Notes: generated by a model not told the origin, from the letters alone. Shown: positions 9,676-30,520, counted from the stretch's first letter. The stretch: DNA of 64,000 bases from Gammaproteobacteria bacterium (GCA_023475025.1 JAMCWB010000030.1:1853-65852), one strand, 5' to 3'. Made by a program: numbers and translations.

Positions 9676-10029
<354 letters not shown>

Positions 10030-10257: not shown

Positions 10258-10307
10258 GCACCCTTTTAGTGCGCATTTTTGGTGCATATCGCCTTTTCCC
10301 GGTGCAT
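10258..10307. promoter_or_regulatory. NtrC-like enhancer sites
   Basis: GCACCCTTTTAGTGC (GCAC-N7-GTGC dyad) plus two GGTGCAT half-sites. Their position relative to the -24/-12 candidate is appropriate. Confidence 0.35.
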
Positions 10308-10420
10308 CGTACTGATCGCGCCACCCAATACCAGCCAACGCTGGGCCTGAATCCAGCCACAGTGATACACTTGAACTTTCTGGCCGGATGCCCCGGCCAG
10401 CCCCGAACACTGGAAGCCCT

Positions 10421-10669
10421 ATGCTGCACAAGGTTCTGATAGGCGCGGTCAGCGGCCAGGCCGCCCGGCTATTAATGAGCGAAAAAGGCCTCTCACCGGC
10501 AGAAATGGAAAGTCGACTTAAAGTGCTGCTCAACAGCGCATTGAGTAAACTCGACGTCGTCAGCCGGGATGAATTCGAGACCCAGCAGGTGGTGCTGCAA
10601 CGCACCCGGGAAAAGCTGGAATCCCTGGAAAAGCGCGTCGCGCAACTGGAGCAGCAGCAGGAAGGCTGA
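10421..10669 (+). CDS. ubiK: UbiK/YqiC-family coiled-coil accessory factor
   Basis: ATG at 10421 within track ORF 10388..10669. It is 82 aa with a helical C-terminal LESLEKRVAQLEQQ. Its position between glnK and yifB matches Pseudomonas. Confidence 0.65.
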   Translation: MLHKVLIGAVSGQAARLLMSEKGLSPAEMESRLKVLLNSALSKLDVVSRDEFETQQVVLQRTREKLESLEKRVAQLEQQQEG

Positions 10670-10695
10670 GCTCTTATAACCTCAATGATCAAGGA

Positions 10696-12204: not shown

Positions 12205-12218
12205 AGAGAAATGAGCAC

Positions 12219-13901: not shown

Positions 13902-14064
13902 GAAATTTCCCCGATGGCCCTATAAAATTAATTAGATACAGTGTTTTTATAAAGTAGGTTATATCCAATTTTTTGCCACATACCAAGCCTAGCCTTTAGC
14001 CATCACTGCTGATTGTCAAGCGCAAGCTGATAGAATACTCGCTCAACTCAGGAGCCATGCCGCC

Positions 14065-16071
14065 GTGTCACGCCTCAACCCCCGCCAGCAGGAAGCCGTT
14101 CACTACATCAGTGGCCCGTTGCTGGTACTGGCCGGTGCCGGCAGTGGTAAAACCAGCGTCATTACCCGCAAGATCGCCTACCTGGTCCGTGAGTGCGGTA
14201 TCAAGGCCCGGCATATTGTTGCCGTGACCTTTACCAACAAGGCCGCTCGCGAGATGAAGGAGCGTGTCGGCCAACTGATCAAGGGCCCCGATGCGCGCGG
14301 GCTGACGGTTTCTACTTTTCATAACCTGGGCCTCAACATCATCCGCAAGGAACACCAGACACTGGGCTTCAAGCCCGGCTTTTCGATCTTCGACCAGCAG
14401 GATGCCCAGGCGCTGATTACCGATCTGATGCAGCGGGATTACGGCGCCGACGATGGTAGCGATGGCATTCAGCAGCAAATTTCCAGCTGGAAAAACGACC
14501 TTATCCTGCCGGATGAAGCCTTGGCTAATGCCCGCACACCCCAGGAGCAAACCGCCGCCAGCGTCTACATGCACTATCAGCGCACACTCAAGGCCTATAA
14601 TGCGGTCGATTTCGATGACCTGATTCTGATTCCGGTGATGCTGTTTCGCAATCACCCGGATGTGTTGGAAAAGTGGCAATTCCGCATCCGCTACATGCTG
14701 GTCGACGAATACCAGGACACCAACGCCAGCCAGTACCTGCTGGTGAAAATGCTGGTCGGCAATCAGGCGCGCTTTACCGTGGTCGGCGATGACGACCAGT
14801 CAATCTATGCCTGGCGCGGTGCGCGACCAGAAAATCTGGCGCTGTTGAAAGAGGATTTTCCCAGCCTCAAGGTAGTCATGCTCGAGCAGAACTACCGCTC
14901 GACCAGCCGTATTCTGCGCGCCGCCAACACCTTGATTGCCAATAATCCTCACGTATTTGAGAAGCAGTTGTGGAGCGAGCTGGGCTATGGCGATCCGATC
15001 CGGGTGATCCGTTGCCGCAACGAAGATGCCGAAGCCGAACGGGTCGCCACCGAGATCCAGACTGCGCATCTCAAGCATCGCCGGGCATGGAAGGACGTTG
15101 CCATTCTTTACCGCGGCAATCATCAGGCACGCTTGATGGAGCTCAAGTTGCAGCATCACCAGATTCCCTATCACTTGTCCGGCGGCACCAGCTTTTTCAG
15201 CCGCCAGGAAGTGAAGGACCTGATGTCTTACTTCCGTTTGCTGGTCAACCCGGATGACGACAACGCACTGCTACGGGTCATCAATGTACCGCGCCGCGAA
15301 ATCGGCCCGGCCACCCTGGAGAAACTGAGCAACTATGCCAACGGCCGCGAAATCAGCCTGTTTACTGCCTGCGGAGAAATGGGGCTGGCAGAACACCTCG
15401 ACGCCCGCTATCTCGAGCGCCTGCAACGCTTCCAGAGCTGGCTGGACGGCATTCGCCAGCGCTGCCAGCGGGAAGAACCCATAGGCGTGCTACGCGATAT
15501 GGTGCTGGATCTGGACTACGAGAACTGGCTGCGCCAGAACTGCTCCAGCGACGAGATTGCTGCCAAGCGCATGAGCAACGTCTGGTTTCTGCTCGACGCC
15601 CTGAAAAGCATTATCGAGCGGGATGAAGAGGGCAAAACCGATATTGAAGATGCGATCGCCAAACTGGTCCTGCGTGACATGCTCGATCGTCAGGAGGAGG
15701 AAGAAGACACCGACCGCGTCCAGCTGATGACTCTGCATGCCAGCAAGGGCCTGGAATACCCGCATGTATTCATTCTGGGGATGGAGGAAGAAATCCTGCC
15801 GCACCGCTCCAGCATTGAAGCCGACAGCGTGGAAGAAGAGCGCCGGCTGACCTATGTCGGCATTACCCGCGCCCGCCAGACATTGACCTTTACCTTCGCC
15901 GCCCGTCGACGCCAGTTTGGCGAAGTCATTGACTGCCTGCCCAGCCGATTCCTCGATGAATTACCCGACGATGACCTCGAATGGGAAGGCACCGACGACG
16001 CCCCACCAGAGCAAAAGCAGGCACGCGGAAACAACGCCCTGTCTGACATCCGCAGCCTGCTCGGCCGCTGA
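14065..16071 (+). CDS. rep: ATP-dependent DNA helicase Rep
   Basis: GTG start. SF1A motifs are present (AGAGSGKT, VDEYQDTN, TLHASKGLE), and the protein is 668 aa. Confidence 0.93.
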   Translation: MSRLNPRQQEAVHYISGPLLVLAGAGSGKTSVITRKIAYLVRECGIKARHIVAVTFTNKAAREMKERVGQLIKGPDARGLTVSTFHNLGLNIIRKEHQTLGFKPGFSIFDQQDAQALITDLMQRDYGADDGSDGIQQQISSWKNDLILPDEALANARTPQEQTAASVYMHYQRTLKAYNAVDFDDLILIPVMLFRNHPDVLEKWQFRIRYMLVDEYQDTNASQYLLVKMLVGNQARFTVVGDDDQSIYAWRGARPENLALLKEDFPSLKVVMLEQNYRSTSRILRAANTLIANNPHVFEKQLWSELGYGDPIRVIRCRNEDAEAERVATEIQTAHLKHRRAWKDVAILYRGNHQARLMELKLQHHQIPYHLSGGTSFFSRQEVKDLMSYFRLLVNPDDDNALLRVINVPRREIGPATLEKLSNYANGREISLFTACGEMGLAEHLDARYLERLQRFQSWLDGIRQRCQREEPIGVLRDMVLDLDYENWLRQNCSSDEIAAKRMSNVWFLLDALKSIIERDEEGKTDIEDAIAKLVLRDMLDRQEEEEDTDRVQLMTLHASKGLEYPHVFILGMEEEILPHRSSIEADSVEEERRLTYVGITRARQTLTFTFAARRRQFGEVIDCLPSRFLDELPDDDLEWEGTDDAPPEQKQARGNNALSDIRSLLGR

Positions 16072-16090
16072 TCAGCAGCGAGCATAAAAA

Positions 16091-16125
16091 ACCGCCGCAC
16101 CCGGCAGGGTAACGGCGGTTCTTTT
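16091..16125. terminator. Bidirectional terminator between rep and cytochrome c5
   Basis: Stem ACCGCCG...CGGCGGT flanked by an A-run upstream and TTCTTTT downstream. Confidence 0.55.
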
Positions 16126-16141
16126 CAAGCGATGTGCCGGA

Positions 16142-16803: not shown

Positions 16804-16880
16804 GCACCCGTAGCTCAGCTGGATAGAGTACCGCCCTCCGAAGGCGGGGGTCACAGGTTCGAATCCTGTCGGGTGCGCCA
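16804..16880 (+). tRNA. tRNA-Arg (anticodon CCG)
   Basis: Cloverleaf read by hand: acceptor GCACCCG/CGGGTGC, anticodon stem CCGCC/GGCGG with loop CTCCGAA, T-arm ACAGG-TTCGAAT-CCTGT, and an encoded CCA. Confidence 0.9.
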
Positions 16881-17288: not shown

Positions 17289-19082
17289 TTAACTTTCAAT
17301 ACTCAAAGCCCACCCCCTCCTGCCTAATGTCCGAAAGTCGCAACTCCCTGCAACCATTTGTTGATACTCGCGTGCGCCCTTAATTCCCCCGCGCAAGTAC
17401 CGATCGGATCCGCACTCAGCGCAATGAGCCTTGAATCCGGCTGGTTCCTGAAAAACAGGGCAAGCTGACCCACCGCATACAGGACAGACCTTCAATGCCC
17501 TGATCTCTTCGCTACGTTGTACCAGCTCATTCTCGAGCCGTATCGCATTGCCAGCCTTCAACACCTTATTCAGTTCGCCCAAGAGGTTTCCATCCAGCAC
17601 GTCCCTTACCTGGAGGGTTTTATTTTGTTGATCGACCCGCAGAGCAGAAGACCCCTTGGCCAGACTGAGAGCAGCAGTCGGGACTTTTATTAACGGTCGT
17701 CCATAGTTTTCCAACAGCAGTCCCTGCAAGACCCGATCAACCAATAAGCCAAATCGTTCCTCGCAGTACATATCCGAAGGGGAAAGCGGCACCCATTGCC
17801 CTTCAAAGGCGACCTGCGGCAGTTCTTGATCAAGTGCGGGCCAGGCGATGATCCGGTTGGTAGTAAGCTTCTGTTCAGAGGGGGCTTCCGCTGTCAGCCA
17901 AGGTACAACAGTCAGCAGTACCGCATCAGCGCTCACCAATTCCCACTCCAAGCCATTTTGTCGCAACGCCAGGGACCTGCCTGCCCAGTCCCCCTGGTCT
18001 TTCCCCCCTAGATACGGCTGCAGCGCTCGGCGTAAAACAAGGCCTGCGTAACGCGAATAAGCTTGAGCGAGATGCCGATTTCTTCTGAAACGCTCTTCAG
18101 CAGTTACTTTAGTTCCTGCCTGGCTGCGACCCAAAAGATCCCATAGAGCAGCCACATGCCGGTAGCTCGGATCATGGCTGAGGATATTCGTGCGATGCAA
18201 TCCGCTTTCAACCTGAGCGTTGCGGTCTACCAGCGTATACAGGCCACTTTGCTGCAACCCCCGGATTGCCTTTTGCAGGCTCTGCAGCGTGCTCAGTGAT
18301 TCATTCAAGAGCGCAGAGACTTTGCTGGTAGCACTCTGATCAAAGGTCCTACCCCATATATCACATACTGCATGGGCCAACCGATGATTGATATCGGCGG
18401 ACTCATAAAACTCCATAGCCTGGTCAAGTGTCGCCTGCAAACTACCAAGGGCCGATAGTCGATTACGCAGATGTCTGTCGATCTTGTCCAACAGCCTTGC
18501 GTATACACGGTTCTCGTAGATGCCGTAATCATCCTCACTGAAACGAGCCATTACCTTTCTTGGAATAACCCCGCTCAATGTTTGCCGCTGCCAATATTCG
18601 GAGTGGGACGCGAGGTGCACCAGCGCACCTTTTGACAACCTGCGTGCACGGGCTATATCTGTGACTTCATCCTCATAATGCATATCCAGTCGTGGTCGCT
18701 TGGAGATTCGGTGCAGATGCCCTTTGTTGAGCACCTCCCGCAACTTCTCTTCAAATGTCTGGAGATGTGCCTGATCATCTACAACTGCTGCTGGCATCAG
18801 AGGAGAAGGCAGCGTTTCCCCCTTCTGAATGTCAGCATCTATAGTGATAATTGCATTGAATAGCAGGTCGGCATTCGCAGTGTCGGCCTGTCCTGGAAGG
18901 ATGAAGGTTAGAATCTGCTTATCAAGCTGGCATCGCTGCCCACCGTCATCAACCAGTAGCCCCGAGAAGTCGGGCGTGTGACCATTCAAGGTGAGCCCTG
19001 TAGAGCCAGCCCAATAGCGCCCAGGCGCAACCTGCGGGGGCAGCGTCTTAAGCTGCGCCCCTGTCAGCCTATCCAACCACAT
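17289..19082 (-). CDS. McrC-like (DUF2357-type) partner protein with C-terminal zinc ribbon (CnuC-like)
   Basis: 597 aa with a 1-nt start/stop overlap on the McrB-like gene. DDYGIYENRVYARLL resembles the conserved ENR motif of McrC-family proteins. The C-terminal CPVCGG...CAECG is a zinc ribbon. No clear PD-(D/E)xK triad was seen by eye. Confidence 0.5.
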   Translation of the reverse strand: MWLDRLTGAQLKTLPPQVAPGRYWAGSTGLTLNGHTPDFSGLLVDDGGQRCQLDKQILTFILPGQADTANADLLFNAIITIDADIQKGETLPSPLMPAAVVDDQAHLQTFEEKLREVLNKGHLHRISKRPRLDMHYEDEVTDIARARRLSKGALVHLASHSEYWQRQTLSGVIPRKVMARFSEDDYGIYENRVYARLLDKIDRHLRNRLSALGSLQATLDQAMEFYESADINHRLAHAVCDIWGRTFDQSATSKVSALLNESLSTLQSLQKAIRGLQQSGLYTLVDRNAQVESGLHRTNILSHDPSYRHVAALWDLLGRSQAGTKVTAEERFRRNRHLAQAYSRYAGLVLRRALQPYLGGKDQGDWAGRSLALRQNGLEWELVSADAVLLTVVPWLTAEAPSEQKLTTNRIIAWPALDQELPQVAFEGQWVPLSPSDMYCEERFGLLVDRVLQGLLLENYGRPLIKVPTAALSLAKGSSALRVDQQNKTLQVRDVLDGNLLGELNKVLKAGNAIRLENELVQRSEEIRALKVCPVCGGSACPVFQEPAGFKAHCAECGSDRYLRGGIKGAREYQQMVAGSCDFRTLGRRGWALSIES

Positions 19083-21523
19083 TATCTGACATCCTCCAGA
19101 CGGCGAATATCAGCCTCCAGCAGCTGGTTGCAACTCGTTGGCTCACCGCCAAAGCCTGCATCAATCCAGAAAGTTTCCAGTGCATTCTGTACCGCTTTCA
19201 ATGCATCAAGGCTTACATCGTAACGACCGGTGACCTTGCCTTTTCGCATCACGCGCGTGGACAACAGGTGGTCCAGGGCTTCACCCTCGGACCCTCCCGC
19301 TGCCTTGATGACTGGGATGAAGCGCATTGCCTGCTTCTCAAAACGGTTCCCCCAACCCAAATCAAAATCCTTTTCCAGTAGTGTGGTCAAGGGGGCCTCG
19401 CTGAGCCATTTCAGCAAATCCCCGACCTCCTCCCCGTGCTTATTACATGCCTCATCAAAGGACTTGTTAAGTGAACTGTACGAAAAGCTTGTCGGATCGT
19501 AGCGCCTGACACCGAAGCGGTCGTCCTGCTTCGGCAGGGTCATCACATGAGCACGGTCATAGGTTTTATCGGCGAGCTCGTTAGTAGTTTCGTCATGGTT
19601 GGCAGTCCCGATAAACCAGACGTTACCCGGCACAAGTATTTTGCGCCCTTCGCGCAGCATCACCGGTGCATTAGGCATCGCCGTTTCCGCTAGACTGATC
19701 AACCTCTCGTCAGGGTTGTTCTTCTCAAGAGCGGACAAAAATTCAGCAAAATATTGCTCTGGCCGGGAGAGGTTCATCTCATCGAGCAGAATGACGTTAC
19801 AAGTATCCTTCCAGCGGGGCGTTTGAGCTTTATACAAGGCTTGCAGACAGTCCTTTTCATAAAAGCGCCGCTCGAAAGCGTTGTAATGGCCAAGCAAATC
19901 ATCACGGTCACGCCATCCTGCCTGCACAGCAATATCAGTACAGAACCCCCCCATTGCTTTAGCAAATGCTTTAGCCAGACTGGTTTTTCCTGTACCGCTG
20001 ATACCCTGAAAGACATGCAGCTGACTCATCGCCAGCCCACCGATCAGGGTACGAATATCTTCAAGACGATAAAACAGTTCAACGCTATCTTCTGCCTGGG
20101 CAATACGGTGCTGGAGCTCCTCAGCAAACTGCTCGAGCCCTGGCACAGGTTCATGCTCCATACTCGCGCGGTACTCCCGTTCCGTATCCATCAGCGACAT
20201 GGCCGGGAACGGCGTCTGGGTTTTCTGAGCGTTAGTCAGCTGATCAATACGGCTTTCAAGATCATCAATATGCACAGTCAGCGTGTTCTTGTGCTGTTCG
20301 AGTACACGTTTTTCGCGCGCTACAGCCTCAAGCTCAGTGGCAGCGACACGCCTCACGCTCAACTCACGTCTTAATTCGTCTCGCTCTGGCATAAGTGCCG
20401 CAAGATCCCGCTCAAGGTCAGCTTTACTACCACGCAGGTAATCGAGCTCTCGCTGTAGTTCGGCACTATCCGATTGTTCCAGCCGGCGTTTGAGAGAGTT
20501 ATTGTCCTGTCGCAAGTTATCGAGCTGCTCCAGAATGTCCGTCGCAGAGTGCTCACCAAGTGTCTGTTCCAACTCTCGCATACCCAAGAGTTGCTCCTTC
20601 AGCGCCTCGGTTTTCCCCCAAGCGCTGTCCAGCTGCCGCTCCAGCCTCGCCACAGCCTGCTCATGACTGGCGCGCTCCGCCTTCATTTCCAGGGTAACCC
20701 GCTGCTCCAGCTCTTGCTCTGCACCCTTGAGATCTGTCCATTCACGATCCAGCCTTCCACGGGCTCGATCCAGGTCCAGCTTGCTCTTACTTATTTCATG
20801 CTCGCGCTCATCTAGGAGCCTGACCCGCTTGGACTCCTCCTCTGAGCAGTTGAACTTGATCTCTGCCAGACGGCGCGCAGCCTCGCTCAGCTCGTCATCA
20901 AGCCTGCGCTTCTCATCTCTGAGCTCCTGCAGAATATCAGCCTGCTGTTTGAACAGCTCCTGCTGGCGCCGCTCAAGCTGACGCAGGGCCTGCTCATTCT
21001 GTTCCACAAAGCCAGCCTGGGCCTCGGCTTCACGCAGGCTCAGGGAGCGCCCAGTCTCCAAGAGTGCCGACTTCTGTTGCGCCAACTCAGCCTGTTCGGC
21101 AGACAGGGCGGCCCTTGCATCGTCATGGGTTTTTCTCTCCGCCTCGAGTGCGTCCCGCTCGATAACCAGCTTCTGCTCACGCTCCTCAATATCAGCAACC
21201 AGTCTGTTGGCTTCCTCCCAGCGACCGGAGTACTCATCCTTCAGTCGCTCCTTGAGTTTAACCAGCTCTTTACAGAATTCCGCGAAGCGCTCAATCCAAC
21301 GACCGAGCTCCGCATCCTCATCAGACTCGAATCTGTCCAGTACAACGCTCAGCCATTCCTGGTCGACAGGAATATCCATACTCATATCAAACGACTGGTA
21401 AACTTTGGAGGCACTCTCAAAAGACGCAGTCCACTTGTTATCCAACCCTGGGCGAGCCATTAAGACAGCGCCAGCCAACTGCTGGGCATTCTTGCTCGAA
21501 TTCTTCTTCGCCATTACATCCAT
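19082..21523 (-). CDS. Coiled-coil fused McrB-like AAA+ GTPase (CnuB-like)
   Basis: 813 aa. Residues about 80-440 are an E/R/L/Q-rich heptad-like coiled coil. The C-terminal AAA+ module has Walker A GISGTGKT, Walker B ILLDEMN and a McrB-type NxxD-like motif GTANHDET. Confidence 0.7.
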   Translation of the reverse strand: MDVMAKKNSSKNAQQLAGAVLMARPGLDNKWTASFESASKVYQSFDMSMDIPVDQEWLSVVLDRFESDEDAELGRWIERFAEFCKELVKLKERLKDEYSGRWEEANRLVADIEEREQKLVIERDALEAERKTHDDARAALSAEQAELAQQKSALLETGRSLSLREAEAQAGFVEQNEQALRQLERRQQELFKQQADILQELRDEKRRLDDELSEAARRLAEIKFNCSEEESKRVRLLDEREHEISKSKLDLDRARGRLDREWTDLKGAEQELEQRVTLEMKAERASHEQAVARLERQLDSAWGKTEALKEQLLGMRELEQTLGEHSATDILEQLDNLRQDNNSLKRRLEQSDSAELQRELDYLRGSKADLERDLAALMPERDELRRELSVRRVAATELEAVAREKRVLEQHKNTLTVHIDDLESRIDQLTNAQKTQTPFPAMSLMDTEREYRASMEHEPVPGLEQFAEELQHRIAQAEDSVELFYRLEDIRTLIGGLAMSQLHVFQGISGTGKTSLAKAFAKAMGGFCTDIAVQAGWRDRDDLLGHYNAFERRFYEKDCLQALYKAQTPRWKDTCNVILLDEMNLSRPEQYFAEFLSALEKNNPDERLISLAETAMPNAPVMLREGRKILVPGNVWFIGTANHDETTNELADKTYDRAHVMTLPKQDDRFGVRRYDPTSFSYSSLNKSFDEACNKHGEEVGDLLKWLSEAPLTTLLEKDFDLGWGNRFEKQAMRFIPVIKAAGGSEGEALDHLLSTRVMRKGKVTGRYDVSLDALKAVQNALETFWIDAGFGGEPTSCNQLLEADIRRLEDVR

Positions 21524-23001
21524 TCCTTAAAACATGCGGTAAAGCCCAGCGCGTACTGTATGCTGTCCAGCGCCATACGCGTCGTGAGTTGAATTGGTTC
21601 TTTCCCTGTGTATTCGCTCTGGGCGTGGCTGCTCTTGTTGCGCAGGTCGGCCACCTTCAGCAGCTTATCCAGTTGCAACTCGCTAGGACCTAGAGCCCTG
21701 AGCGGATGCCCCGGCTCATCGAGCGTACCCATTGCTGCAGCAAACAGCAGAGCCTTGAGCGAGGAAACTGGGCTGGAGCAAGCCCTGATCACCTGATCCA
21801 GACTCTGCCTTGAAAGCGCAACGCTTACCGGCCCGGTCAACGCAGGAACCGGCAGCGCAGAAAGGAGCTGTTGATTCAAACTGAAGTTGTTTTTTTTCAG
21901 CTTTGGCAACTGCCCCTCATTAGCTGGGTAAGTCCGGATCAGCCATTGCATGACCACTTCCAGCAGTTTCTGACTTTCCACCAGCGCGGCATCCAGCTCC
22001 TGCCCACTATGGTCATCCCTTAGTTTCTCGCGACGCACCAACAACGCGCCCAAATGGCGTTTGATATCTGGCTGCCGCTCTACCCAAGGATATTCAACCA
22101 GGATCTGAAACTCCGTTTGCTGTCGGAGTGCTTGCAACCACTGCTCCACGCTCTGCTCATCGGTACGTGGGATGCTTACGAGATTCTCAAGGTAAGTAAG
22201 GAGATGGGCGTTCTGCTCAACCAGCTGCAGAAATGCTTCGTTCAGCCACCAAGCGTTTTCACGCAGACCGAAGGGGTCCTTGACCGACCACAAATCCAGT
22301 CCGTCACTATCGCCAGTCACCCATACCAACACACGGGCGGATTGCGCAACATCATCCAACCGCTGCACACCCTGCAAACTGACCTGTTCAGGTAACCCGG
22401 TCCATTGGCCAAGCTGCTGGCTGGCGCTATAGTCTTCACGATAGTCACGATAAGCCCGCATCAAGGTGTCGTGGTCCAGCGCAGGCAACTCGGTGCGTGG
22501 CACTGAAAACTTGAAAGGCCTGTAGGTTTTACCTGTTCTTCGCTCCGTCAAGAACTCCGGAAAGTGGGCCAATGGGTCCACAGGCTCTATCTGGCTCAAC
22601 TGGACAACCAGCCGTGGCCAGAAGCGGCCATCTACTGCATCCTGCAGCAAATAACCGGATTTCATGTTGGTCTCAGCCACGTCCTCATCATCCAGCAAGC
22701 TCTCGCCTTTAGCTGTAAGCGCATCGGCGCTATCTACAAGCCATCCGTTGCTGACCCCTTGCGCAAGTATCAACTTGATCAGGTTAAGGTGGAGCCCGGT
22801 CAGAGCCGCCATATCTTCCGGGCGCGCGGTTCTTGCGCGCACCAGCCCCAGCACGGCGCGCTGTAACAGATTCAACTGCGACCGCTTTGGATCGGGATAC
22901 AGAACACGATGAACCAGTACGGGCCAGAGCAGCGACCGTTTCTTACCAAACGGTTTGGGGCCAAATGAGAGATACATACCAGACTCAGCGAAGACTGCCA
23001 T
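21514..23001 (-). CDS. wHTH-like / HEPN-motif protein (predicted RNase)
   Basis: Track ORF 21514..23085. The start was moved to ATG 23001, which is preceded by GGAGGTGAGC. The C-terminal ADLRNKSSHAQ is an Rx4H HEPN signature. The rest has no recognisable motif. Confidence 0.55.
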   Translation of the reverse strand: MAVFAESGMYLSFGPKPFGKKRSLLWPVLVHRVLYPDPKRSQLNLLQRAVLGLVRARTARPEDMAALTGLHLNLIKLILAQGVSNGWLVDSADALTAKGESLLDDEDVAETNMKSGYLLQDAVDGRFWPRLVVQLSQIEPVDPLAHFPEFLTERRTGKTYRPFKFSVPRTELPALDHDTLMRAYRDYREDYSASQQLGQWTGLPEQVSLQGVQRLDDVAQSARVLVWVTGDSDGLDLWSVKDPFGLRENAWWLNEAFLQLVEQNAHLLTYLENLVSIPRTDEQSVEQWLQALRQQTEFQILVEYPWVERQPDIKRHLGALLVRREKLRDDHSGQELDAALVESQKLLEVVMQWLIRTYPANEGQLPKLKKNNFSLNQQLLSALPVPALTGPVSVALSRQSLDQVIRACSSPVSSLKALLFAAAMGTLDEPGHPLRALGPSELQLDKLLKVADLRNKSSHAQSEYTGKEPIQLTTRMALDSIQYALGFTACFKEWM

Positions 23002-26000
23002 GCTCACCTCCACACATCTGGTGGAACGCAGCCAGAGCGGGTACCGCCTCTTGTGCCTCCGGGGCGGTAGCCAGCGCTGAGTCACCGACGCAGATCAACA
23101 TTTGCCTCTGACGGCTCATGGCAACGTTCATACGGTTGGGCAGCCTCAAGAACCCAAATTGCCGGTTGAGCTGCTTTTCCCGCTCGGCATCCCCCTCACT
23201 TCCCTGCCCCGGTGTTACAGGTTTATAGGTTCGAACACATGACAACAGCACAACATCAAACTCCTTGCCCTGGAACGCGTCGACAGAGCCAACCCGTAGC
23301 CGCTCTTCAGAGTTGACGGAGCCGTCCCCGCGCACCTTTCTTGTCCATTTGAAGATCTCATGGGGTTCGTAAGCTCCGTTGCGCAGCACCATCAGCGGTA
23401 CGCCATCGATGCGCTGCTCAGAGAGCTTCTCCATGATCAACTCGCGCTGTGCTGCATAGAAGGTTATGACACCCACCGATAGACTATCGCCACCAGCCTG
23501 CAGCAACCTCACTACCTCCTCGGCAATGCGCAGCGCCTCTACCTCCCTCACGCGACTTGTGCCTGAGCGCATCTCCTTACCCTGCCCCGCAGGCACATCT
23601 ATCCACTGGCAGACGCGGTCACGATAATGGCTAGCCAAAGGGCCAAGTCCGGCAAGGAAAGTCTCAGAAAAAACAAAATCCGCGGCGTCACGACCAGAAC
23701 GAATTCGCCCCAGCCCTTGGGATTCGTAAAATTGAGTACTTATAAAGTCACCAAGTAATGGGTGCATCCGGAACTGGGTGTCCAACATAACCACGCGACG
23801 GATATTGTCCTGCCTTTCAAGATCTTGCAGCTTGATACGCATTCGCTCGAACAGGCTCGAGCGAAAGGCCGCCAACTGCAGCTCGGTAAGCTGGTGCTCC
23901 GCCTGCAGCTGGCCCTCGATATCTGGCTCCAGCATGTGTGGTAACTGTCTGTCATCCCCGACCAAGACTATTCGGCGCTTTGCCATGGCCATAGGCACAA
24001 ACAGATCCAACGGGTTGGCACGGGCAGCCTCATCAATAACCACGGTATCAAATTCGATATCCGTGCTATCCAGATTCGATACTGATTTGAGGTTTGCCAT
24101 CTGCCTTCCTGCTGCCTGCTGGCAGGTAGCACCAACCACCATTGAATACTCATGCACGACCGCCTGTGCGGCGGCCCGGTCAATCGCCAGGCTATCCGCC
24201 AGCTGCTCCAGCACCCCGGCTACCCCCTGCTTACGCTGGCGCAGCCGGGTCTCCAGGTGTCGTTCAATCTCATCCAGCAGTGCCACCCCCTCTGGATCTG
24301 CCTGCTGCCTCAAGCTCACTGGTCGATAATCTGGCATATAAAGATCAAGTAACCGAGGCTTCCAGGCAGCCAGGTTTTGCAGCGTGGAGTCTTGAGTCTC
24401 TGTGCTATCCGCCGCCTCTTCCAGCACAGCAAACAGATCCGGATTGGTGTCTATGCCTTGACGCTTCAACCAACTGAGCAGGTCCCATGCGCGGTCCGGG
24501 CCATCGTCGTTAAATGAGGTCTCATCGACGCGAAGCGCTCTAACCCTTCTCAGAACCTGAACATTATGACCATCAACCGAAGTAGTAGGCGCCTGCCTTT
24601 GCAGTTGCTCGATGTACTCCTCGACCTGACTTTCAAGCCGCGGTGGCATTACCAAGCCACTTACCTCCAGCTCGCGCAACCCGTTCAAAATGCTCACGAA
24701 GCTCTCAGCCTGACTCCCGGGCGAAGCACCGGCAATTCTTGCCAAAGCCAGTTGGGTCGACAGATTCCGGACAAGCTCCAGTTCAGGATATTTGCCGTAC
24801 TGCTCGATCACCTTACCCTGCAGATGCTCGACCTGACGATCCAGCCATGGATCAATCAGGGAATCTTCTTCCTGCGCTCCCCGCTTACCACCCACTCGAG
24901 CCCCGGGCAGGCCAAACACATCGCTACGATCCAACGCGTTATCGACGGCGTCATGCTGGAAACTGCTGATCAGCACTTGCGCAGCAATATTATTCTCTTC
25001 AGCCTCTTCCGCGAGGCGGCGCTGCAGGGCTGCTATGACCTGAGTCTTACCGGTTCCTGGGGGGCCAATTATGATGGCCATATCAGGCGTGTTCAGTGCC
25101 GTATCCAACGCCAGGATCTGCTTCTCAGTGGGCTTGCCTCCCTTGAAGGTTTCCAATGCATACGGCGTCAGCCCCTTGATTGGACGGCGCCTGGAAGCGG
25201 GCACAGCCACACCTTCCAGCAACCACTTCAACTGGGGTAGTCGTTTCCCGGAATCAATCGACTGTTTTGCTGCCAGACGACGTTTACCCACCGTCCGCTG
25301 GCCGGCCAGCGACAGATAGATCCAGCCCTCAGGCTTTCTAGGGCGAATACTGCGGCGATTTGAAACTGGCTTGAAAACAACGCAGTTCTGCTCAAAGCGA
25401 ATTGTGCCCCGCGGATTATCCTGCTCAGCCTTCACTTCATCCGTAGTCAGTTCCTCAGCCCAGTCAGGGCGATCAACGCTGAGATCGACCTGCGTGCCTG
25501 CAGCAAGGTCCAGGTTGCGCCAACGTGAACGAAACTCTCTGTAATCGTCCAATGAGGCTGGCGTCAGTCGCCAGACGTTTTCGCGGCCCTCTTCATGCCC
25601 TTCCCATTCCACAAAGCGCAGGGCACGCAAGGTTTCAGCCTGAGTCAGCGCGGTTTGCCACTCCCTATCGTTGTAGAGATTCCATAGCTCCAGATAACTG
25701 GCACTGTCGCGCAACGCTGCATCAAGCGCCGCCCGATAACCAGGGCTGGCAAGAACAGCGGCAACCGACGCATCACGAAACGCAAACTGACCCAGGAGCA
25801 ATGAAAAGGCACCATCCCGGCGCGTATGACGGGTAATTCGCTTGATCAGTAACCCTTGATCCGCGCCCTGTTGCACATCTGCCCGCCAGCCCTTGCCCAC
25901 CAGCTGGAAAGCGCCACGGGATGTGCTGTTACTGAATCGTGCCACTGTGAGCCAGTCGCCCTCAGCTTGGTCGCGCACAAGAAAAGTCTCAGCCAACCAA

Positions 26001-26374
26001 TCGCAGGCCAGCTCAATACGCTGGTCGGGGATTTCCTGCTTGCTGTAGAGGTCTTCCACTATCAGCTCATCAACTCCGAGCTCAAGCTCCATGGCAGAAA
26101 TCTCAACTGGCGCACAGTACTGCACCAAAAGCTTGTCAGCCTGTTTGCTAGTGAGCAGCCAGCGTGTCTGATCCCTTAGAACCAAGCGGCTGAACAGGCC
26201 ATGATCAGCCCTCGCACAACTGACTCGAATCCGTTCATCTTTCTGCACAGCCAGCCATTCATCTTGATAGGCCTGCAGAAGCATCGCCTGCCCCACTTGA
26301 AAGCCGTCTGTTGATTCATCTGAGCTGAGAACCAGGACATCCTCGGACAGCAGGGGAAAGTGTTTAAAGTCCAT
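22985..26374 (-). CDS. Upf1/DNA2-like SF1B helicase with about 430-aa unknown N-terminal region (CnuH-like)
   Basis: 1129 aa. Helicase motifs are IIGPPGTGKT, VVIDEAARA, VLVGDDRQLP, VDAFQGKEFDVVLLS and NVAMSRQRQMLICVGD. Confidence 0.8.
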   Translation of the reverse strand: MDFKHFPLLSEDVLVLSSDESTDGFQVGQAMLLQAYQDEWLAVQKDERIRVSCARADHGLFSRLVLRDQTRWLLTSKQADKLLVQYCAPVEISAMELELGVDELIVEDLYSKQEIPDQRIELACDWLAETFLVRDQAEGDWLTVARFSNSTSRGAFQLVGKGWRADVQQGADQGLLIKRITRHTRRDGAFSLLLGQFAFRDASVAAVLASPGYRAALDAALRDSASYLELWNLYNDREWQTALTQAETLRALRFVEWEGHEEGRENVWRLTPASLDDYREFRSRWRNLDLAAGTQVDLSVDRPDWAEELTTDEVKAEQDNPRGTIRFEQNCVVFKPVSNRRSIRPRKPEGWIYLSLAGQRTVGKRRLAAKQSIDSGKRLPQLKWLLEGVAVPASRRRPIKGLTPYALETFKGGKPTEKQILALDTALNTPDMAIIIGPPGTGKTQVIAALQRRLAEEAEENNIAAQVLISSFQHDAVDNALDRSDVFGLPGARVGGKRGAQEEDSLIDPWLDRQVEHLQGKVIEQYGKYPELELVRNLSTQLALARIAGASPGSQAESFVSILNGLRELEVSGLVMPPRLESQVEEYIEQLQRQAPTTSVDGHNVQVLRRVRALRVDETSFNDDGPDRAWDLLSWLKRQGIDTNPDLFAVLEEAADSTETQDSTLQNLAAWKPRLLDLYMPDYRPVSLRQQADPEGVALLDEIERHLETRLRQRKQGVAGVLEQLADSLAIDRAAAQAVVHEYSMVVGATCQQAAGRQMANLKSVSNLDSTDIEFDTVVIDEAARANPLDLFVPMAMAKRRIVLVGDDRQLPHMLEPDIEGQLQAEHQLTELQLAAFRSSLFERMRIKLQDLERQDNIRRVVMLDTQFRMHPLLGDFISTQFYESQGLGRIRSGRDAADFVFSETFLAGLGPLASHYRDRVCQWIDVPAGQGKEMRSGTSRVREVEALRIAEEVVRLLQAGGDSLSVGVITFYAAQRELIMEKLSEQRIDGVPLMVLRNGAYEPHEIFKWTRKVRGDGSVNSEERLRVGSVDAFQGKEFDVVLLSCVRTYKPVTPGQGSEGDAEREKQLNRQFGFLRLPNRMNVAMSRQRQMLICVGDSALATAPEAQEAVPALAAFHQMCGGEHGSLR

Positions 26375-26380
26375 ATGCCA

Positions 26381-27790
26381 TCACCACCTGAACTGCCAGA
26401 AGATGTGCGAAGCGTCTAGATCGCCCACGTGAACCCGATAAGGTTCCGCATGCTGGCCACGCAAACTGTGTTTCAGTCCTTGATAGACCTCGAGGGCCTT
26501 TTTGGTCTGCCCGCGCTGGAGAGTCAGCCGACCTTCCAGCAGAGGGTAAATACCCAACCCTTTTTCTGTGAACTCAACACGGATATGGTCGGCGGGCCAA
26601 CGGTCGTAACTGAAGGTTGGCATCAACCGCTTCAGCTCCAGATCTGCCCCAAGTTGCAACCAGACCTTGCGGCCAGTTGCCATTTCAACGTCGTCTGCCG
26701 CTTCCTGGCTGTCTTCATCTTTTAGCTGAACGACAAACTCCTCGAACAACACCGCAGTGCTGTCGAGGGGGGTATCGCAAAAGAAGCAGCACTGGTCATC
26801 GAGCGAGTTAATTTCCTGCGGCACCAGGGTGCTGCCGCCACACCCATTGCAGGCAATCAGGCGCTCATCGATTTCGCTGAGCGCTTCCAGCCACTCAGCC
26901 ATACCCGGCCGCTCCGCCGGGTTATCTCGCCCTTGCTCAAAACAACGAGCAAAAAGCGCAGGCAGTTTGCTGTGCTCGATGAGCTGGATTGGCAGATTTA
27001 TAAAGCAGGCATTGGCATCATCGTGCGGGTCATGGATCCATGGTCGCTCGCCACGCAGTGCCGCATCTTCTTCCTCTGGCTCGCAATCACTGATCAAGTC
27101 ACCCTTGAACGGGTGATTGTGGGTCAGCAACTGATAGGCGATAACAGCAAAGCTCCAGGCATCGGTGAGACTGGACAAAAGGGAGTCACCGCGAACGACC
27201 TCGGGCGCTCCATAATCTACGGTGTGCAATGACAGGCCACTATGAGACTCCAGACTGATATTGTCGCAATCGATCAGCCATGTTTCGGCGTGGGCTGAAT
27301 CGTCTGATACAAATATATTGCTGGGTGACAGGTCGCCATACAGCATGCCTCGGGCGTGCAGTTGATTAAGCGTTCTGGCCAACTGACAGAGAATGCGCAC
27401 ACGACGACGAAGCCCACCCTGGCGCAGGTAATCAGCAGATGCTTCTTCGCCTGCCTCTACATAGCTCTCGAGCAATCGTTGCAAAGGCTCCAACCCATCC
27501 ATCAACTCCATAACATAACCACAGCGCGGCTCTGCAAGTGGCGATAGCGGACGAGCCAGTTTCAGACCGGCAAGATCCTGACGAATCAGCCACGCAATGT
27601 GTTTCTGCCAGCGCCGGCGAGCCTGAGGGTCTTTATTTGTGAACCCCTTGATAAGAACCTGTGGGTACTGGGTGTGGTAGACAATACCTTGACCACCACG
27701 GCTGAGCTCTTCGCACAGCTCGTAGATTGAACCCTTGGTGTCTTGCACCATGCGCTTGGGTCGCGCGCTTGTCTTTGCGGTCATCTGCAT
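26381..27790 (-). CDS. Ser/Thr protein kinase with C-terminal zinc ribbon (TerY-P kinase)
   Basis: Gly-rich loop GGQGIVY, catalytic loop YGDLSPSN, DCD in place of DFG, and YGAPE. A CNGCGG...CCFFC motif follows. TGATG coupling to the PP2C gene. Confidence 0.85.
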   Translation of the reverse strand: MQMTAKTSARPKRMVQDTKGSIYELCEELSRGGQGIVYHTQYPQVLIKGFTNKDPQARRRWQKHIAWLIRQDLAGLKLARPLSPLAEPRCGYVMELMDGLEPLQRLLESYVEAGEEASADYLRQGGLRRRVRILCQLARTLNQLHARGMLYGDLSPSNIFVSDDSAHAETWLIDCDNISLESHSGLSLHTVDYGAPEVVRGDSLLSSLTDAWSFAVIAYQLLTHNHPFKGDLISDCEPEEEDAALRGERPWIHDPHDDANACFINLPIQLIEHSKLPALFARCFEQGRDNPAERPGMAEWLEALSEIDERLIACNGCGGSTLVPQEINSLDDQCCFFCDTPLDSTAVLFEEFVVQLKDEDSQEAADDVEMATGRKVWLQLGADLELKRLMPTFSYDRWPADHIRVEFTEKGLGIYPLLEGRLTLQRGQTKKALEVYQGLKHSLRGQHAEPYRVHVGDLDASHIFWQFRW

Positions 27791-28482
27791 CAGTCCATTC
27801 TGAAAATGCCGGCTATGGTCTTGTCATCACCGTGTCGGGGTGTCGACCATCCGTTCAGTTCACGCGTCAGCCATTGACGCATCTGGCGTTTACTTGAGCG
27901 CCGCTGGCGCTGGTAAATCGCCTCGAAAAAAGACTCAAGATGCTCAGGAATAAGATCGTCGGAAATACCATCCGTCATCAGCAGCACACCATCGCCCGGG
28001 CGACCGAGTTCGATGTCAGTACTGTTGATCGTCTGGAGATCAGCCTGAGCCAGCGTTAGTGTCTGATTGCCGAACCCCTGGCGCTGCTCGGTGATTACGC
28101 GGAACTCACCATGACTTCTTACCAGGAGCAAACCGTCACCTATCTGCCCAGCTACGCCCTTTCCACAAGCATCGACCAGAGCCCAGATACAGGTCGCCTC
28201 ATACGCGCTGTGCCTGGCCCCGAAACGGTTCAGCCAGGCATCCCGCAGAGCGCAACCGACCTTATCATGCTTCAGGTCTGACCCCTGCCGAGCCAACTGT
28301 CTGAACAGCCGAACAGCTCTAGCTGAACCATAATGGCTTAGCGGCCGACTACCCAGCCCATCGGCTACGGCGATACACCAGCCACCTTTCAATCCGCGGA
28401 TACAGAGCGCATCCTGATTCGGAGCACCCTCCTGCACATGTGCAGGCCCGCGAACCGAGGAGCCTCCTGCTGAAAGTCGCAT
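27790..28482 (-). CDS. PP2C-family protein phosphatase (TerY-P phosphatase)
   Basis: NQDAL..., VADGLGS and LLMTDGISDDL metal-binding motifs. TGATG coupling on both sides. Confidence 0.85.
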   Translation of the reverse strand: MRLSAGGSSVRGPAHVQEGAPNQDALCIRGLKGGWCIAVADGLGSRPLSHYGSARAVRLFRQLARQGSDLKHDKVGCALRDAWLNRFGARHSAYEATCIWALVDACGKGVAGQIGDGLLLVRSHGEFRVITEQRQGFGNQTLTLAQADLQTINSTDIELGRPGDGVLLMTDGISDDLIPEHLESFFEAIYQRQRRSSKRQMRQWLTRELNGWSTPRHGDDKTIAGIFRMD

Positions 28483-29168
28483 CAGAACTCCCAGTCTTGA
28501 TCATCACCTTTTTGAATCTGCAGGGGTGTGGACTGATTGGGTGTAGCTGACTGACTGCGAGCGCTGACGCTCATGGTCACCGCACGGAAGAAGCGATGAA
28601 TGTCTGCGGCATTTTCTGCGCGAAACAGCGGAGCTTCGGGGTCATTGGCAAAGGTGCTGAGCATGTCCTCATCCGCATCGGCACCGATCGCCATGGCAAA
28701 GCGGGTTGCCTTGGCGCTCCGTTCACCCTTGGCCAGACGCTGAAACGGCCCCTGCCACTCATCGTTCGGGTAGCCATCAGAGACCAGTACAACAACCGGT
28801 CTATAGGCGCGAGAGGGAACGCTGTCCTTGTCTTCAATCATGTCGCTCAGCAGCGTCAGTGCGCCACCCAACGGAGTCATACCTTCAGCGGTCAGTGGCG
28901 TGAAACCGCTCAACTGATGCGCTGGCGTCAGGGGCAAGCTGACGGAAGCTTGATTGCCACCAAAAGTAATCACGCTGACCTGAATCTCGGCGCGCAAACG
29001 ACTTTCACCAGCAAAACTTTGGATCATGTCCTTGAGCCCCTTGTTAAGGGCTTCGATCTTGCCATCGACGGACATGCTGCCACTGGTATCGGCCAACACG
29101 ATGATCGGCAGAGGTCGGGCGGTTTGAACCTGGAATTTCTTCAACTCAGACATCAATGTCTTCCTCAA
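28482..29168 (-). CDS. TerY-like von Willebrand factor A protein
   Basis: MIDAS DTSGS, downstream GMTPLG and VLVSDGYPND, 228 aa. Confidence 0.85.
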   Translation of the reverse strand: MRKTLMSELKKFQVQTARPLPIIVLADTSGSMSVDGKIEALNKGLKDMIQSFAGESRLRAEIQVSVITFGGNQASVSLPLTPAHQLSGFTPLTAEGMTPLGGALTLLSDMIEDKDSVPSRAYRPVVVLVSDGYPNDEWQGPFQRLAKGERSAKATRFAMAIGADADEDMLSTFANDPEAPLFRAENAADIHRFFRAVTMSVSARSQSATPNQSTPLQIQKGDDQDWEF

Positions 29169-29252: not shown

Positions 29253-30149
29253 TTAGCGCATTACCTTGTTCCAGTCGATGCCATAGCCAGCGGCGTCCAG
29301 CTCACGAGCAAGCGCTTGTTTCCAGCCGCCACTTTTATCCATGTTTTCCCACACCACTCCGGCAAAATCGCTCGGAATCTCAAGCTCCCCACTTTTCAGT
29401 GCACAGACCCGCTCCCGCCCCAGTCGACCTATGAAATAGCCCAACTCCAGCAATACGTTCTGTCTTGCTCTGAGTTCCGGGGTACCACCCTTTACGCACC
29501 CTTCGTCATCCGGCGTTAGCAACACAACAGCGAACCCGACATCACTGTGGGCGACCACCTTTTCGATGATGGTGCGCCCCTGGTTGGCTTGTTCATGCAG
29601 GATGATGGCTTCCAGGCCCATGCGCTCAAGGAACCGCGCAACCGACTCGCGTGCACCATCATCGTGGCCGTGGACGATAAAAACCTTGCTTGAAAAGGGG
29701 AGCTTAAGCGTAGTACCCGTATCGCCACGAGAATTCACATAGCTCTTATAGTCGCGCACAAAAGGAATAATAAGCTGGCCAGTGAGGGTATGAATTCCAG
29801 CTATGACCTTGTTCCCGGAATGAAAATAATGGAGGCAAAAATTGATCGCATAATCAGGATCTGCAGCCAGCTTTTGTATTAAAAGCAGCGTCAAACCTAA
29901 TGATGCTTTATGATCATCCGGCCAAGCCAGCTTGGCGCTTCCCATCATGCCAGTTGCGGCTTTTCCACTTTCCTCAAGGAAAGCCTCCAAATCGACGCCA
30001 GCAGTAAGCTCGTCATTAAAAGGCGCAAGATCAGAATGCTTAAGCAGCTGGGCCAGCTTGCGCAAGGGACGCTCGAAAGTCTGCATCTGAGAATTTTGCA
30101 GATCCAGTACGGCATGGTTGATTTCAGTAAAAAGATCCTGACCCATCAC
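29253..30149 (-). CDS. Two-domain protein with C-terminal bacterial TIR-like nucleotide-binding domain
   Basis: The C-terminal half reads KVFIVHGHDDGARESVARFLE..VVLLTPDDEG..RARQNVLLELGYFIGRLGRERVC..PSDFAGVV. This matches the TIR-like family seen in Cap12/PycTIR effectors. The N-terminal 150 aa are unrecognised. Confidence 0.7.
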   Translation of the reverse strand: MMGQDLFTEINHAVLDLQNSQMQTFERPLRKLAQLLKHSDLAPFNDELTAGVDLEAFLEESGKAATGMMGSAKLAWPDDHKASLGLTLLLIQKLAADPDYAINFCLHYFHSGNKVIAGIHTLTGQLIIPFVRDYKSYVNSRGDTGTTLKLPFSSKVFIVHGHDDGARESVARFLERMGLEAIILHEQANQGRTIIEKVVAHSDVGFAVVLLTPDDEGCVKGGTPELRARQNVLLELGYFIGRLGRERVCALKSGELEIPSDFAGVVWENMDKSGGWKQALARELDAAGYGIDWNKVMR

Positions 30150-30430
30150 TGACCTCCTTCTGATTGCAATCTGGCTTCTGCTGCTTTTTGCAGGATCTGC
30201 TCCCGATATTTTTCCTTCATCTGAATAACTAACGGCCCGACAATCGAATTGGACGCATATTCCGTAACCCGTAGATCAATAGTCTGGCTAATCTGATTGA
30301 TCGCTGACTCAATACTGGAAGGGTCATAAGGGTTAAATTTTACAACCCCAAGTTCACCATCCAACTCGGAGAGAGCACGCTGAGCGTCCTCGAGCTGTTT
30401 TTGCAGCTTATCAAAACCTTTGATTTTCAT
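30146..30430 (-). CDS. Small helical protein, unknown function
   Basis: Track ORF 30146..30448 (TTG). ATG 30430 is preferred because of AGGAGG 6 nt upstream. The stop overlaps the TIR-like start by 4 nt. Confidence 0.6.
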   Translation of the reverse strand: MKIKGFDKLQKQLEDAQRALSELDGELGVVKFNPYDPSSIESAINQISQTIDLRVTEYASNSIVGPLVIQMKEKYREQILQKAAEARLQSEGGQ

Positions 30431-30503: not shown

Positions 30504-30520
30504 AGCGAACATCGTGCCAA
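30504..30520 (-). promoter_or_regulatory. Sigma-54 (-24/-12) promoter P2
   Basis: The minus strand reads TTGGCACGATGTTCGCT, with correct GG-N10-GC spacing. It is about 60 nt upstream of the small-protein ATG and matches P1 at 16 of 17 positions. Confidence 0.65.

Follow-up and report, generated by a model that had tools for sequence, protein, structure and literature searches.

Introduction

Coiled-coil nuclease tandems (CoCoNuTs) are among the few bacterial defense families predicted to act on RNA, and they have now been shown to be active against RNA phages. Here, a locus of this kind was analyzed in a 64,000-nucleotide stretch of DNA (JAMCWB010000030.1, positions 1853 to 65852; assembly GCA_023475025.1) from a metagenome-assembled genome (MAG) of an uncultured Gammaproteobacteria bacterium. 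This whole stretch is termed the window, and positions are counted from its first letter. Four minus-strand open reading frames (ORFs), designated cnuH, cnuE, cnuB, and cnuC, are present at 17289-26374, and in the database annotation of the MAG the genes at the locus appear only as "AAA domain-containing protein" and "hypothetical protein." The region is most probably a complete Type II CoCoNuT anti-phage system (cnuHEBC), operonically fused to a TerY-P gene triad and forming the distal part of a ~23-kb superoperon headed by an RtcR-like gene.

In the sections of the survey on which this comparison draws (Bell et al., eLife 2024, PMC11090510), a CoCoNuT is recognized by four features: an McrB homologue belonging to the NxD clade, an extended coiled coil, a homologue of McrC in which the nuclease is often dead, and genes for HEPN or other nucleases in close and often overlapping linkage. 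In the GTPase, the signature NxxD has been reduced to NxD, and the next residue is usually E or D. Type II CnuH is composed of an SmpB-like OB-fold (SPB), a RelE/colicin D-like domain (RTL), an OB/stalk element, and a helicase in which Walker A is followed by a large helical insertion; the OB-fold and stalk are as in UPF1, SMUBP-2, and SEN1. Type II CnuE consists of an elongated winged helix-turn-helix (wHTH) domain, a coiled coil, and one HEPN domain with an RxxxxH motif, and Type II CnuC is reduced to an Ig-like domain, DUF2357, an inactivated PD-(D/E)xK fold, and a zinc ribbon that often has two CPxC motifs, down from three (PMC11090510). The reading frames of Type II systems often overlap, a TerY-P triad with a zinc-ribbon kinase is usual without belonging to the core, and superoperons are headed by RtcR homologues with Type I restriction-modification (RM) genes between, especially in Pseudomonas. 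In Type III-A, CnuE has two HEPN domains (RxxxxH and a C-terminal RxH), and CnuC is fused to Hsp70-like nucleotide-binding and substrate-binding domains (NBD/SBD) and HEAT, with no nuclease fold or zinc ribbon. The same sections predicted, in 2024, RNA cleavage by CoCoNuTs and their control by RtcR, for which they give no promoter sequence (PMC11090510).

Experimental data are available for homologues. Obs (Obangsin), the seven-gene system obsA-obsG/cnuC of Pseudomonas aeruginosa PMM16, which is described by its authors as a homologue of Type II CoCoNuTs, protects against PP7 and LeviOr01, which are RNA phages, and MPK7, a DNA phage, though not against MP29; transposon insertions in obsC or obsG/cnuC abolished this protection (bioRxiv 10.64898/2026.04.06.716636). 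Experimental protection was also obtained in PAO1 with a cloned "CoCoNut Type II" system (PMC12735699). In a P. aeruginosa island, genes of matching sizes next to RtcR were labeled "Mokosh," "Mokosh (no nuclease)," and "Type IV RM (no nuclease)" by DefenseFinder (END-nuclease preprint, PMC12191111). Type II CoCoNuTs are already known, having been described in 2023/2024 and experimentally tested in 2025-2026. Whereas protection by Obs was demonstrated by experiment, the window locus is known here from MAG sequence alone. It is an ordinary Type II example, with an architecture that has already been published and nothing categorically new. Modestly new are a pair of matching sigma-54-type sites, a cassette of a small ORF and a TIR gene behind the second of them, and the probable start of cnuB at Met4.

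Conservation of the seven-gene unit

A preliminary description of the four genes had proposed a CoCoNuT-type core, made up of a Upf1-like superfamily 1B (SF1B) helicase, a HEPN protein with a C-terminal Rx4H motif, a coiled-coil McrB-type GTPase, and an McrC-like zinc-ribbon protein, beside a TerY-P triad. This proposal was right on every point tested, as set out below protein by protein. The subtype had been left unassigned; it is Type II: CnuE has one HEPN domain, and CnuC carries a zinc ribbon and lacks an Hsp70 module.

Related loci were collected by a scan with a CnuE profile at one genome per species, yielding 50 loci (denoted by L numbers), and their neighboring genes were located by tblastn with the window proteins. 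Both the order VWA-PP2C-kinase-CnuH-CnuE-CnuB-CnuC and the strand were identical in every one of the 41 loci (of 50) with enough flanking sequence, so the four core genes are strictly conserved together; the absence of such conservation had been named in the preliminary description as grounds for rejecting its claim. The related loci included examples from Pseudomonas, Stutzerimonas, Aeromonas, Marinobacter, Marinomonas, Aquitalea, and Massilia and, farther away, in Myxococcota, Planctomycetota, and Verrucomicrobiota. Pseudomonas relatives of the window proteins had 65-86% identity across all seven genes, and the VWA homologues, which occupied the same position in the related loci, were 52-89% identical. 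In the window, the TerY-P genes are joined by 1-nucleotide (nt) overlaps, and a gap of 6 nt separates the kinase gene from cnuH. Gene overlaps, including those of cnuE with cnuH and with cnuB, recurred across the 41 loci in ORF calls whose starts were chosen by proximity to those that the window proteins predict. The tight gene packing far exceeds chance, since order and overlaps are repeated in 41 independent loci. The unit is a set of seven genes, and not four.

In the distant loci L035-L050 (for example, L040 at 10001-16100 and L047 at 9950-16129), the same seven-gene order was seen and CnuE carried a single RDRAAH motif. Their CnuC proteins were longer (~600-715 amino acids [aa]) and had four to five CxxC motifs; the two-motif ribbon of the window appears to be reduced from a fuller state. 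These loci were first suspected to be Type III-A. With a single RDRAAH and four to five CxxC motifs in CnuC, they look like Type II loci with fuller zinc ribbons.

The CnuH helicase and the CnuE HEPN protein

CnuH matched the profiles AAA_11 (E = 4e-30), AAA_12 (5e-36), and the IGHMBP2 family (2e-36) in Pfam and NCBIfam and is therefore a UPF1-like SF1B helicase. The AAA_11 match was stretched across residues 417-812, that is, 396 residues for a 257-position profile, which indicates a large insertion after Walker A. The N-terminal region, for which the preliminary description had found no assignment, was modeled with AlphaFold2 over residues 1-425 from 17 sequences, after a homologue search that gave 28 matches, mostly fragments. 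The model had a mean pLDDT score (predicted local distance difference test) of 82. It was composed of a beta-rich domain (a beta-barrel) at residues 14-101 (pLDDT ~90), an alpha/beta domain at 103-201 with an alpha-alpha-beta4-6 arrangement, and a second beta domain (a barrel) at 252-354 placed between long helices at 204-249 and 357-374. A Foldseek search of the Protein Data Bank (PDB) with this model ranked SETX (senataxin; 8ftm) first (Foldseek probability, 0.91) and IGHMBP2 (4b3g) tenth, and UPF1 (2xzl and 6ej5) and Sen1 were likewise within the top 26, with E values of only 0.01-0.1. As modeled, the region covered by these matches is the stalk/barrel module of the UPF1-like helicase family, with an OB-fold and a helical stalk. 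Collectively, the modeled N-terminus appears to show the published Type II/III-A CnuH module of a beta-barrel, a RelE-like domain, and a UPF1-type stalk and barrel.

CnuE belongs to a family of ~496-aa proteins, of which 120 clusters were found. Alignment of 33 homologues revealed that R454, N455, and H459 of the C-terminal motif R454-N-K-S-S-H459 are invariant (RNxxxH), which bears out the predicted Rx4H motif, and a second conserved Arg/His pair, including RxH, was absent from this alignment. The Pfam family wHTH-PRTase_assc was matched by 32 of the 33 members and HEPN_RiboL-PSP by 14. An AlphaFold2 model of CnuE (pLDDT 81) gave matches to MarR-type wHTH domains at 1.6-2.3 Å across ~66 residues. 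A Foldseek search with the whole model gave no match at E < 0.001; because it recovered the wHTH alone and not the HEPN domain, the HEPN assignment comes from the Pfam matches of family members and from the invariant motif. As judged by motif content, the HEPN RxxxxH of CnuE is the only intact nuclease motif found among the four gene products. The 495-aa protein, previously considered to lack a recognizable family, corresponds to the published CnuE (elongated wHTH and HEPN). With this match, and the apparent one of the modeled CnuH N-terminus, to published Type II components, the suggestion of a variant architecture is not supported.

Part of the unit resembles another defense system. In Mokosh type I, MkoA combines a kinase-like N-terminus and an RNA helicase in one protein, and MkoB is a PLD-family nuclease effector. 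PADLOC models matched CnuH to MkoA (2.6e-81; MkoA positions 349-1081), the window kinase to the N-terminal kinase part of MkoA (7e-11; positions 10-222), and the N-terminal wHTH of CnuE to MkoB (2.8e-6; model positions 11-123 of 610), and no PLD match was found in CnuE. The kinase gene and cnuH jointly cover the single MkoA model end to end, the part of CnuH that aligns being the helicase core and some of its N-terminus. These matches, together with the "Mokosh" and "Type IV RM (no nuclease)" labels given to the homologous P. aeruginosa genes (PMC12191111), could be taken to mean that two independent neighbors lie here, namely a Mokosh type I-like module (kinase, MkoA-like, and MkoB-like) and a nuclease-less Type IV McrBC. 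We consider this very unlikely. The order and strand of the seven genes are kept in all 41 loci, with cnuE overlapping cnuB and cnuB overlapping cnuC; the match to MkoB is confined to model positions 11-123, and HEPN stands where MkoB has PLD; and neither half holds a complete effector set alone, CnuC having no conserved lysine. Further, the P. aeruginosa insertions that abolished protection lay in both obsC, which as third of the seven genes holds the position of the kinase here, and obsG/cnuC. Unlike in Mokosh type I, the kinase and helicase of the window are separate genes, the effector is HEPN and not PLD, and VWA and PP2C genes as well as an McrBC-like pair are joined to the module. By sequence comparison, the cnuHE-kinase module is related to Mokosh type I but is split and carries HEPN; it works like such a system without being a member. 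The split labels given by automated tools arise because cnuHE and the kinase gene are homologous to MkoA/MkoB.

The CnuB GTPase and its CnuC partner

CnuB carries the motifs Walker A GISGTGKTS, Walker B LLDEMN, and a signature N642-H643-D644-E645, of which N642, H643, D644, and E645 were invariant in 21 CnuB homologues. It matched AAA_5 in Pfam and PDC-M26A in PADLOC (1e-38). When a profile of the GTPase domain was searched against the PDB, the best relative of solved structure was Escherichia coli McrB (1.3e-5), and the next AAA+ protein followed at 4e-3. The domain-only profile was needed for this match, as the full-length CnuB profile was swamped by coiled-coil matches, and a search with the single sequence gave only marginal McrB matches (E = 0.15). 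N642 aligns with the Asn of the McrB NTAD motif, and therefore NxxD is shortened to NxD in CnuB. The AAA+ domain is thus closest to McrB and bears the NxD signature of the CoCoNuT clade; the preliminary description would have been refuted by a domain clustering outside the McrB/CnuB clade, and on these two features it passes.

The region N-terminal to the GTPase (approximately residues 71-440) is 74% E/K/R/Q/L/A/D and contains 3 Pro and 10 Gly. Compared with shuffled sequences, residues 71-440 had a heptad a/d score of z = 4.5 and a 3.5-3.6-residue periodicity of z = 4.9-6.1, and the CnuB profile matched the coiled coils of SMC4 and dynactin in the PDB. On these sequence features, the N-terminus of CnuB is predicted to be a long, essentially uninterrupted coiled coil. 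The ~360-residue coiled coil of the preliminary description was therefore upheld by composition, heptad statistics, and profile matches; that it was strictly uninterrupted was not, given the Pro and Gly residues.

CnuC matched DUF2357 at E = 4.7e-5, with a score of 23.2 bits against a cutoff of 23.3, and 9 of 13 family members match this domain. Within its zinc ribbon (C533-P-V-C536 ... C554-x-x-C557), C533, P534, C536, C554, and C557 were invariant in 13 homologues. No column of the same 13-sequence alignment contained an invariant or 90%-conserved lysine, which leaves no (D/E)xK site; at the places expected for PD and (D/E)xK, the conserved strands have VPW and AWP. These features of the alignment support the view that CnuC is an inactivated nuclease. 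A CnuC profile gave no match among PDB sequences even at E ≤ 10, and in Pfam searches residues 1-110 had no match and neither Hsp70 nor HEAT was matched.

The kinship with McrBC raises the possibility that the locus restricts DNA in the conventional, modification-dependent manner, with modified phage DNA cut by CnuBC and with the helicase and HEPN protein as accessories. CnuB shares the AAA+ GTPase core of E. coli McrB (Walker A, Walker B, and the Asn signature) and has a partner with the N-terminal DUF2357 of McrC; McrB is the closest solved relative, the locus lies among DNA restriction genes (Type I RM and Mrr), and one DNA phage is among those blocked by the P. aeruginosa homologue. However, CnuB has NxD where McrB has NxxD and a coiled coil in place of the DNA-binding N-terminal reader domain, and CnuC has gained a zinc ribbon and has no conserved lysine anywhere, so that the (D/E)xK site is missing. 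Moreover, the sole intact nuclease motif is that of HEPN, an RNase family, and the homologue protects against RNA phages. A conventional McrBC-type system is thus very unlikely.

The features of the window instead coincide with those of a Type II CoCoNuT as given in the parts of the survey cited above (PMC11090510). The shared features include the gene set, order, and overlapping frames, the coiled-coil NxD CnuB, a CnuE with wHTH and one HEPN domain, and a CnuC that combines DUF2357 and two Cys pairs with the lack of a catalytic lysine; CnuH shares the UPF1-like architecture, with several N-terminal domains and the insertion following Walker A, the TerY-P triad has a zinc-ribbon kinase, and an RtcR-like gene and Type I RM genes form a codirectional superoperon as in the legend of Figure 8 there. 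Against that description the core is without differences; the window adds the small-ORF and TIR cassette, and TIR is not among the ancillary genes of the Figure 8 legend; it also displays the two sigma-54-type promoter-like sites.

As far as those parts of the survey describe it, Type III-A has in common with the window the TerY-P triad, the same N-terminal module of CnuH, a HEPN-bearing CnuE, a coiled-coil CnuB, and association with an RtcR-like gene, and assignment to this type instead of Type II would account for all of them. Its two-HEPN CnuE and Hsp70/HEAT-fused CnuC were not seen in the window, where the conserved HEPN motif of CnuE is single and a further conserved RxH is lacking, CnuC is a 597-aa protein with an invariant zinc ribbon and no Hsp70/HEAT match, and CnuB has no C-terminal helix-turn-helix (HTH) match in Pfam. 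Assignment to Type III-A is accordingly extremely improbable.

Gene junctions and the probable start of cnuB

Overlaps of 17, 10, and 1 nt had been proposed for the core genes. The first and last were read directly in the sequence. The TGA of cnuH at 22985-22987 and the ATG of cnuE at 23001 give an overlap of 17 nt, with a Shine-Dalgarno sequence, GGAGGTGA, upstream of cnuE, whose open frame reaches 23085, beyond this ATG; the cnuB/cnuC junction reads TAATG, a 1-nt overlap, with GGAGGA upstream of cnuC. The middle overlap is probably 1 nt and not 10. The cnuE TAA lies at 21514-21516, and 10 nt result only from the first ATG of cnuB (21523). Two in-frame ATGs of cnuB, separated by 9 nt, occur within 21512-21523 of the minus strand, and both are forced because the coding of the cnuE C-terminus (...EWM*) is conserved. 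Codon 4 of cnuB (ATG at 21514) is a Met that is invariant among homologues and is preceded by AAGGA at a proper spacing of 9 nt, and CnuB in its 813-aa form was absent from the protein collection searched; the 1-nt overlap is therefore more likely. Thus, the true start of cnuB is probably Met4, giving an 810-aa product and a TAATG junction with cnuE.

Proposed mechanism

Translational coupling of the seven genes suggests that their products are made in fixed proportion and act as a complex. In the model that we propose, CnuH, an RNA or single-stranded DNA helicase with extra N-terminal nucleic acid-binding domains, would load on target RNA and hand it to the HEPN domain of CnuE. CnuB would form an McrB-like GTPase ring, its coiled coil and the nuclease-dead CnuC serving as scaffold or translocase and as sensor, and not as a DNA cutter. 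The kinase/phosphatase pair might gate activity by phosphorylation. The outcome would be cleavage of phage RNA or of host or bulk RNA as well, in the manner of abortive infection. Protection is known for homologues only, and by analogy with them the system of the window would have a defense role.

Upstream genes and candidate sigma-54 sites

The locus is a clean and complete example in which RtcR-like, Type I RM, Mrr, TIR, TerY-P, and CnuHEBC genes are codirectional beside a tRNA gene (Table 1). The superoperon spans ~23 kb, with the seven-gene unit at its distal end.

Table 1. Features of the superoperon, in window coordinates
Feature	Coordinates	Strand	Description
RtcR-like sigma-54-dependent activator	38866-40362	-	498 aa; Sigma54_activat 2e-64, HTH_8; heads the codirectional superoperon
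P1, sigma-54-type promoter-like site TGGCACGATCTTCGCT	38847-38862	-	In the 30-nt gap from the RtcR-like stop to the hsdR start
HsdR, Type I restriction subunit	35440-38835	-	1131 aa; ResIII, HSDR_N, EcoEI_R_C, Helicase_C
YhcG/DUF1016 PDDEXK nuclease-family protein	34386-35489	-	YhcG_C 4e-57, DUF1016_N 4e-48; inside the Type I RM block
HsdM, Type I methyltransferase	32774-34378	-	N6_Mtase 9e-62, HsdM_N
HsdS, Type I specificity subunit	31617-32777	-	Methylase_S 6e-30, two stretches
Mrr-type Type IV restriction endonuclease	30647-31561	-	Mrr_cat 9e-36, Mrr_N 6e-31; PADLOC mREase_IV 5e-90
P2, sigma-54-type promoter-like site TGGCACGATGTTCGCT	30504-30519	-	In the Mrr-to-small-ORF gap, 74 nt upstream of the 94-aa ORF
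94-aa ORF	30146-30430	-	Stop overlaps the TIR gene start (TGATG)
TIR-domain protein (CAP12/Pycsar-type TIR)	29253-30146	-	PF10137 4e-39; PADLOC candidate PDC-S35 1e-71
TerY-like VWA protein	28482-29168	-	VWA 1e-12, VWA_2 4e-11; gene 1 of the seven-gene unit
PP2C phosphatase	27790-28482	-	PP2C_2 3e-37; 1-nt overlap with each neighbor
Ser/Thr kinase-zinc ribbon protein	26381-27790	-	Pkinase 8e-14; C-terminal CNGC...CFFC; 120-aa tail, no Pfam family
CnuH	22985-26374	-	1129 aa; UPF1-like SF1B helicase, ~430-aa N-terminal module, insertion after Walker A
CnuE	21514-23001	-	495 aa from ATG; elongated wHTH, helical linker, single HEPN RNase domain
CnuB	19082-21523	-	813 aa (810 from the probable start, ATG 21514); coiled coil and McrB-like GTPase
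CnuC	17289-19082	-	597 aa; DUF2357 McrC homologue, C-terminal zinc ribbon, no conserved lysine

The best NCBIfam match of the activator was RtcR (NF038308; 9e-95, residues 69-488), at 318 bits against an equivalog cutoff of 650. RtcR-like homologues were found directly upstream of the VWA gene in six related loci (L022-L025, L031, and L032); in L035-L049 they lay at a greater distance. In a scan for the sigma-54 consensus, the only two minus-strand sites with at most one mismatch were P1 and P2, which share the form TTGGCACGAT[C/G]TTCGCT and are identical at 15 of 16 positions. Compared with TGGCAC-N5-TTGCW, P1 has one mismatch and keeps the GG and GC. A TGGCACG-N4-TCGCW element was also present between the RtcR-like and VWA genes in L022, L023 (from Pseudomonas sp. 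P7548), L024, and L032, and this element was ~24-fold enriched in the 600 nt before the VWA gene (8 occurrences in 24.6 kb versus 11 in 820 kb). P1 and P2 are matches to the consensus, and we infer a promoter role for them from this resemblance. They provide a testable handle on the idea, put forward in the survey sections cited above, that RtcR-like proteins switch on CoCoNuTs.

The arrangement recalls the RtcR-RtcBA RNA repair regulon, with which it has in common the type of sigma-54 activator (RtcR being the best match) and gene blocks that begin with sigma-54-type -24/-12 elements. In contrast to that regulon, the window activator scores well below the equivalog cutoff and is codirectional with its putative targets, which are defense genes and not RtcA/RtcB. 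By homology to RtcR and from the two promoter-like sites, the RtcR-like protein might sense damaged RNA and activate sigma-54 transcription, with the first site driving the Type I RM/Mrr block and the second driving the TIR cassette, TerY-P, and cnuHEBC.

The small-ORF and TIR pair, in which the two genes are translationally coupled, is placed between Mrr and TerY-P, behind P2. The 94-aa ORF had no Pfam family and no counterpart in the 50 related loci; the TIR gene was likewise absent from those 50 loci, and the N-terminal 150 aa of its product had no Pfam family. It is possible, although we regard it as doubtful, that the whole 23-kb block is one RNA-damage-inducible regulon in which the RtcR-like activator fires two near-identical sigma-54 promoters and that the cassette, presumably NAD-depleting, was captured behind the second and is co-induced with the CoCoNuT RNase. 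If true, a TIR suicide effector co-induced with a CoCoNuT RNase would be a coupling outside the ancillary modules in the published sections.

Several observations weigh against the interpretation developed here. At the regulatory end, no CARF domain was detected by Pfam in the N-terminus of the RtcR-like protein (best match, Csm6_CARF; E = 0.19); P1 and P2 each carry one consensus mismatch; no shared upstream activator sequence was found between them; and P1 is only ~12 nt from the annotated hsdR ATG. In CnuH, the RelE-like matches to the model were weak (3bpq, probability 0.84; 2khe, 0.69; and the toxin 6af4; E = 0.14-0.3), and SmpB was not among the top 50 PDB structural matches of the 425-aa model, which was searched as a whole multi-domain query. 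The modest Foldseek E values overall (0.01-0.3) are due to the multi-domain nature of this query. To our knowledge, no biochemistry exists for any CoCoNuT, and it is therefore by prediction that RNA is targeted, that the proteins form a complex, and that GTP hydrolysis plays its role.

Possible island context

Near the end of the seven-gene unit, a tRNA-Arg(CCG) gene lies at 16804-16880 on the plus strand, 409 nt from the cnuC stop. At the other end, just past the RtcR-like gene, is a plus-strand tyrosine integrase gene (40892-42292; Arm-DNA-bind_2 and Phage_integrase). A search towards the integrase side for an att-type direct repeat (at least 13 nt) of the tRNA-Arg 3' end or the next 450 nt found none. 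The 24-kb defense block looks like a tRNA-linked island.

Other genes related to defense or RNA metabolism were observed beyond the integrase. A CBASS-like operon on the plus strand (48012-52232) encodes an HNH-SAVED effector (48012-49211), an SMODS/DncV-like nucleotidyltransferase (49208-50464), and a ThiF/E1-like protein (50448-52232), and it is followed by a small ORF (52229-52720); as predicted from its domains, this operon would be a second defense system within the window. On the minus strand at 45606-47527, three adjacent genes encode an RNase T-like exonuclease, a calcineurin-like metallophosphatase, and an HAD_SAK_2 protein (HAD_SAK_2 being the HAD domain found in RNA repair proteins called "Swiss Army Knife"), and these genes, which are suggestive of RNA-end processing, may be relevant to a region under RtcR-like control.

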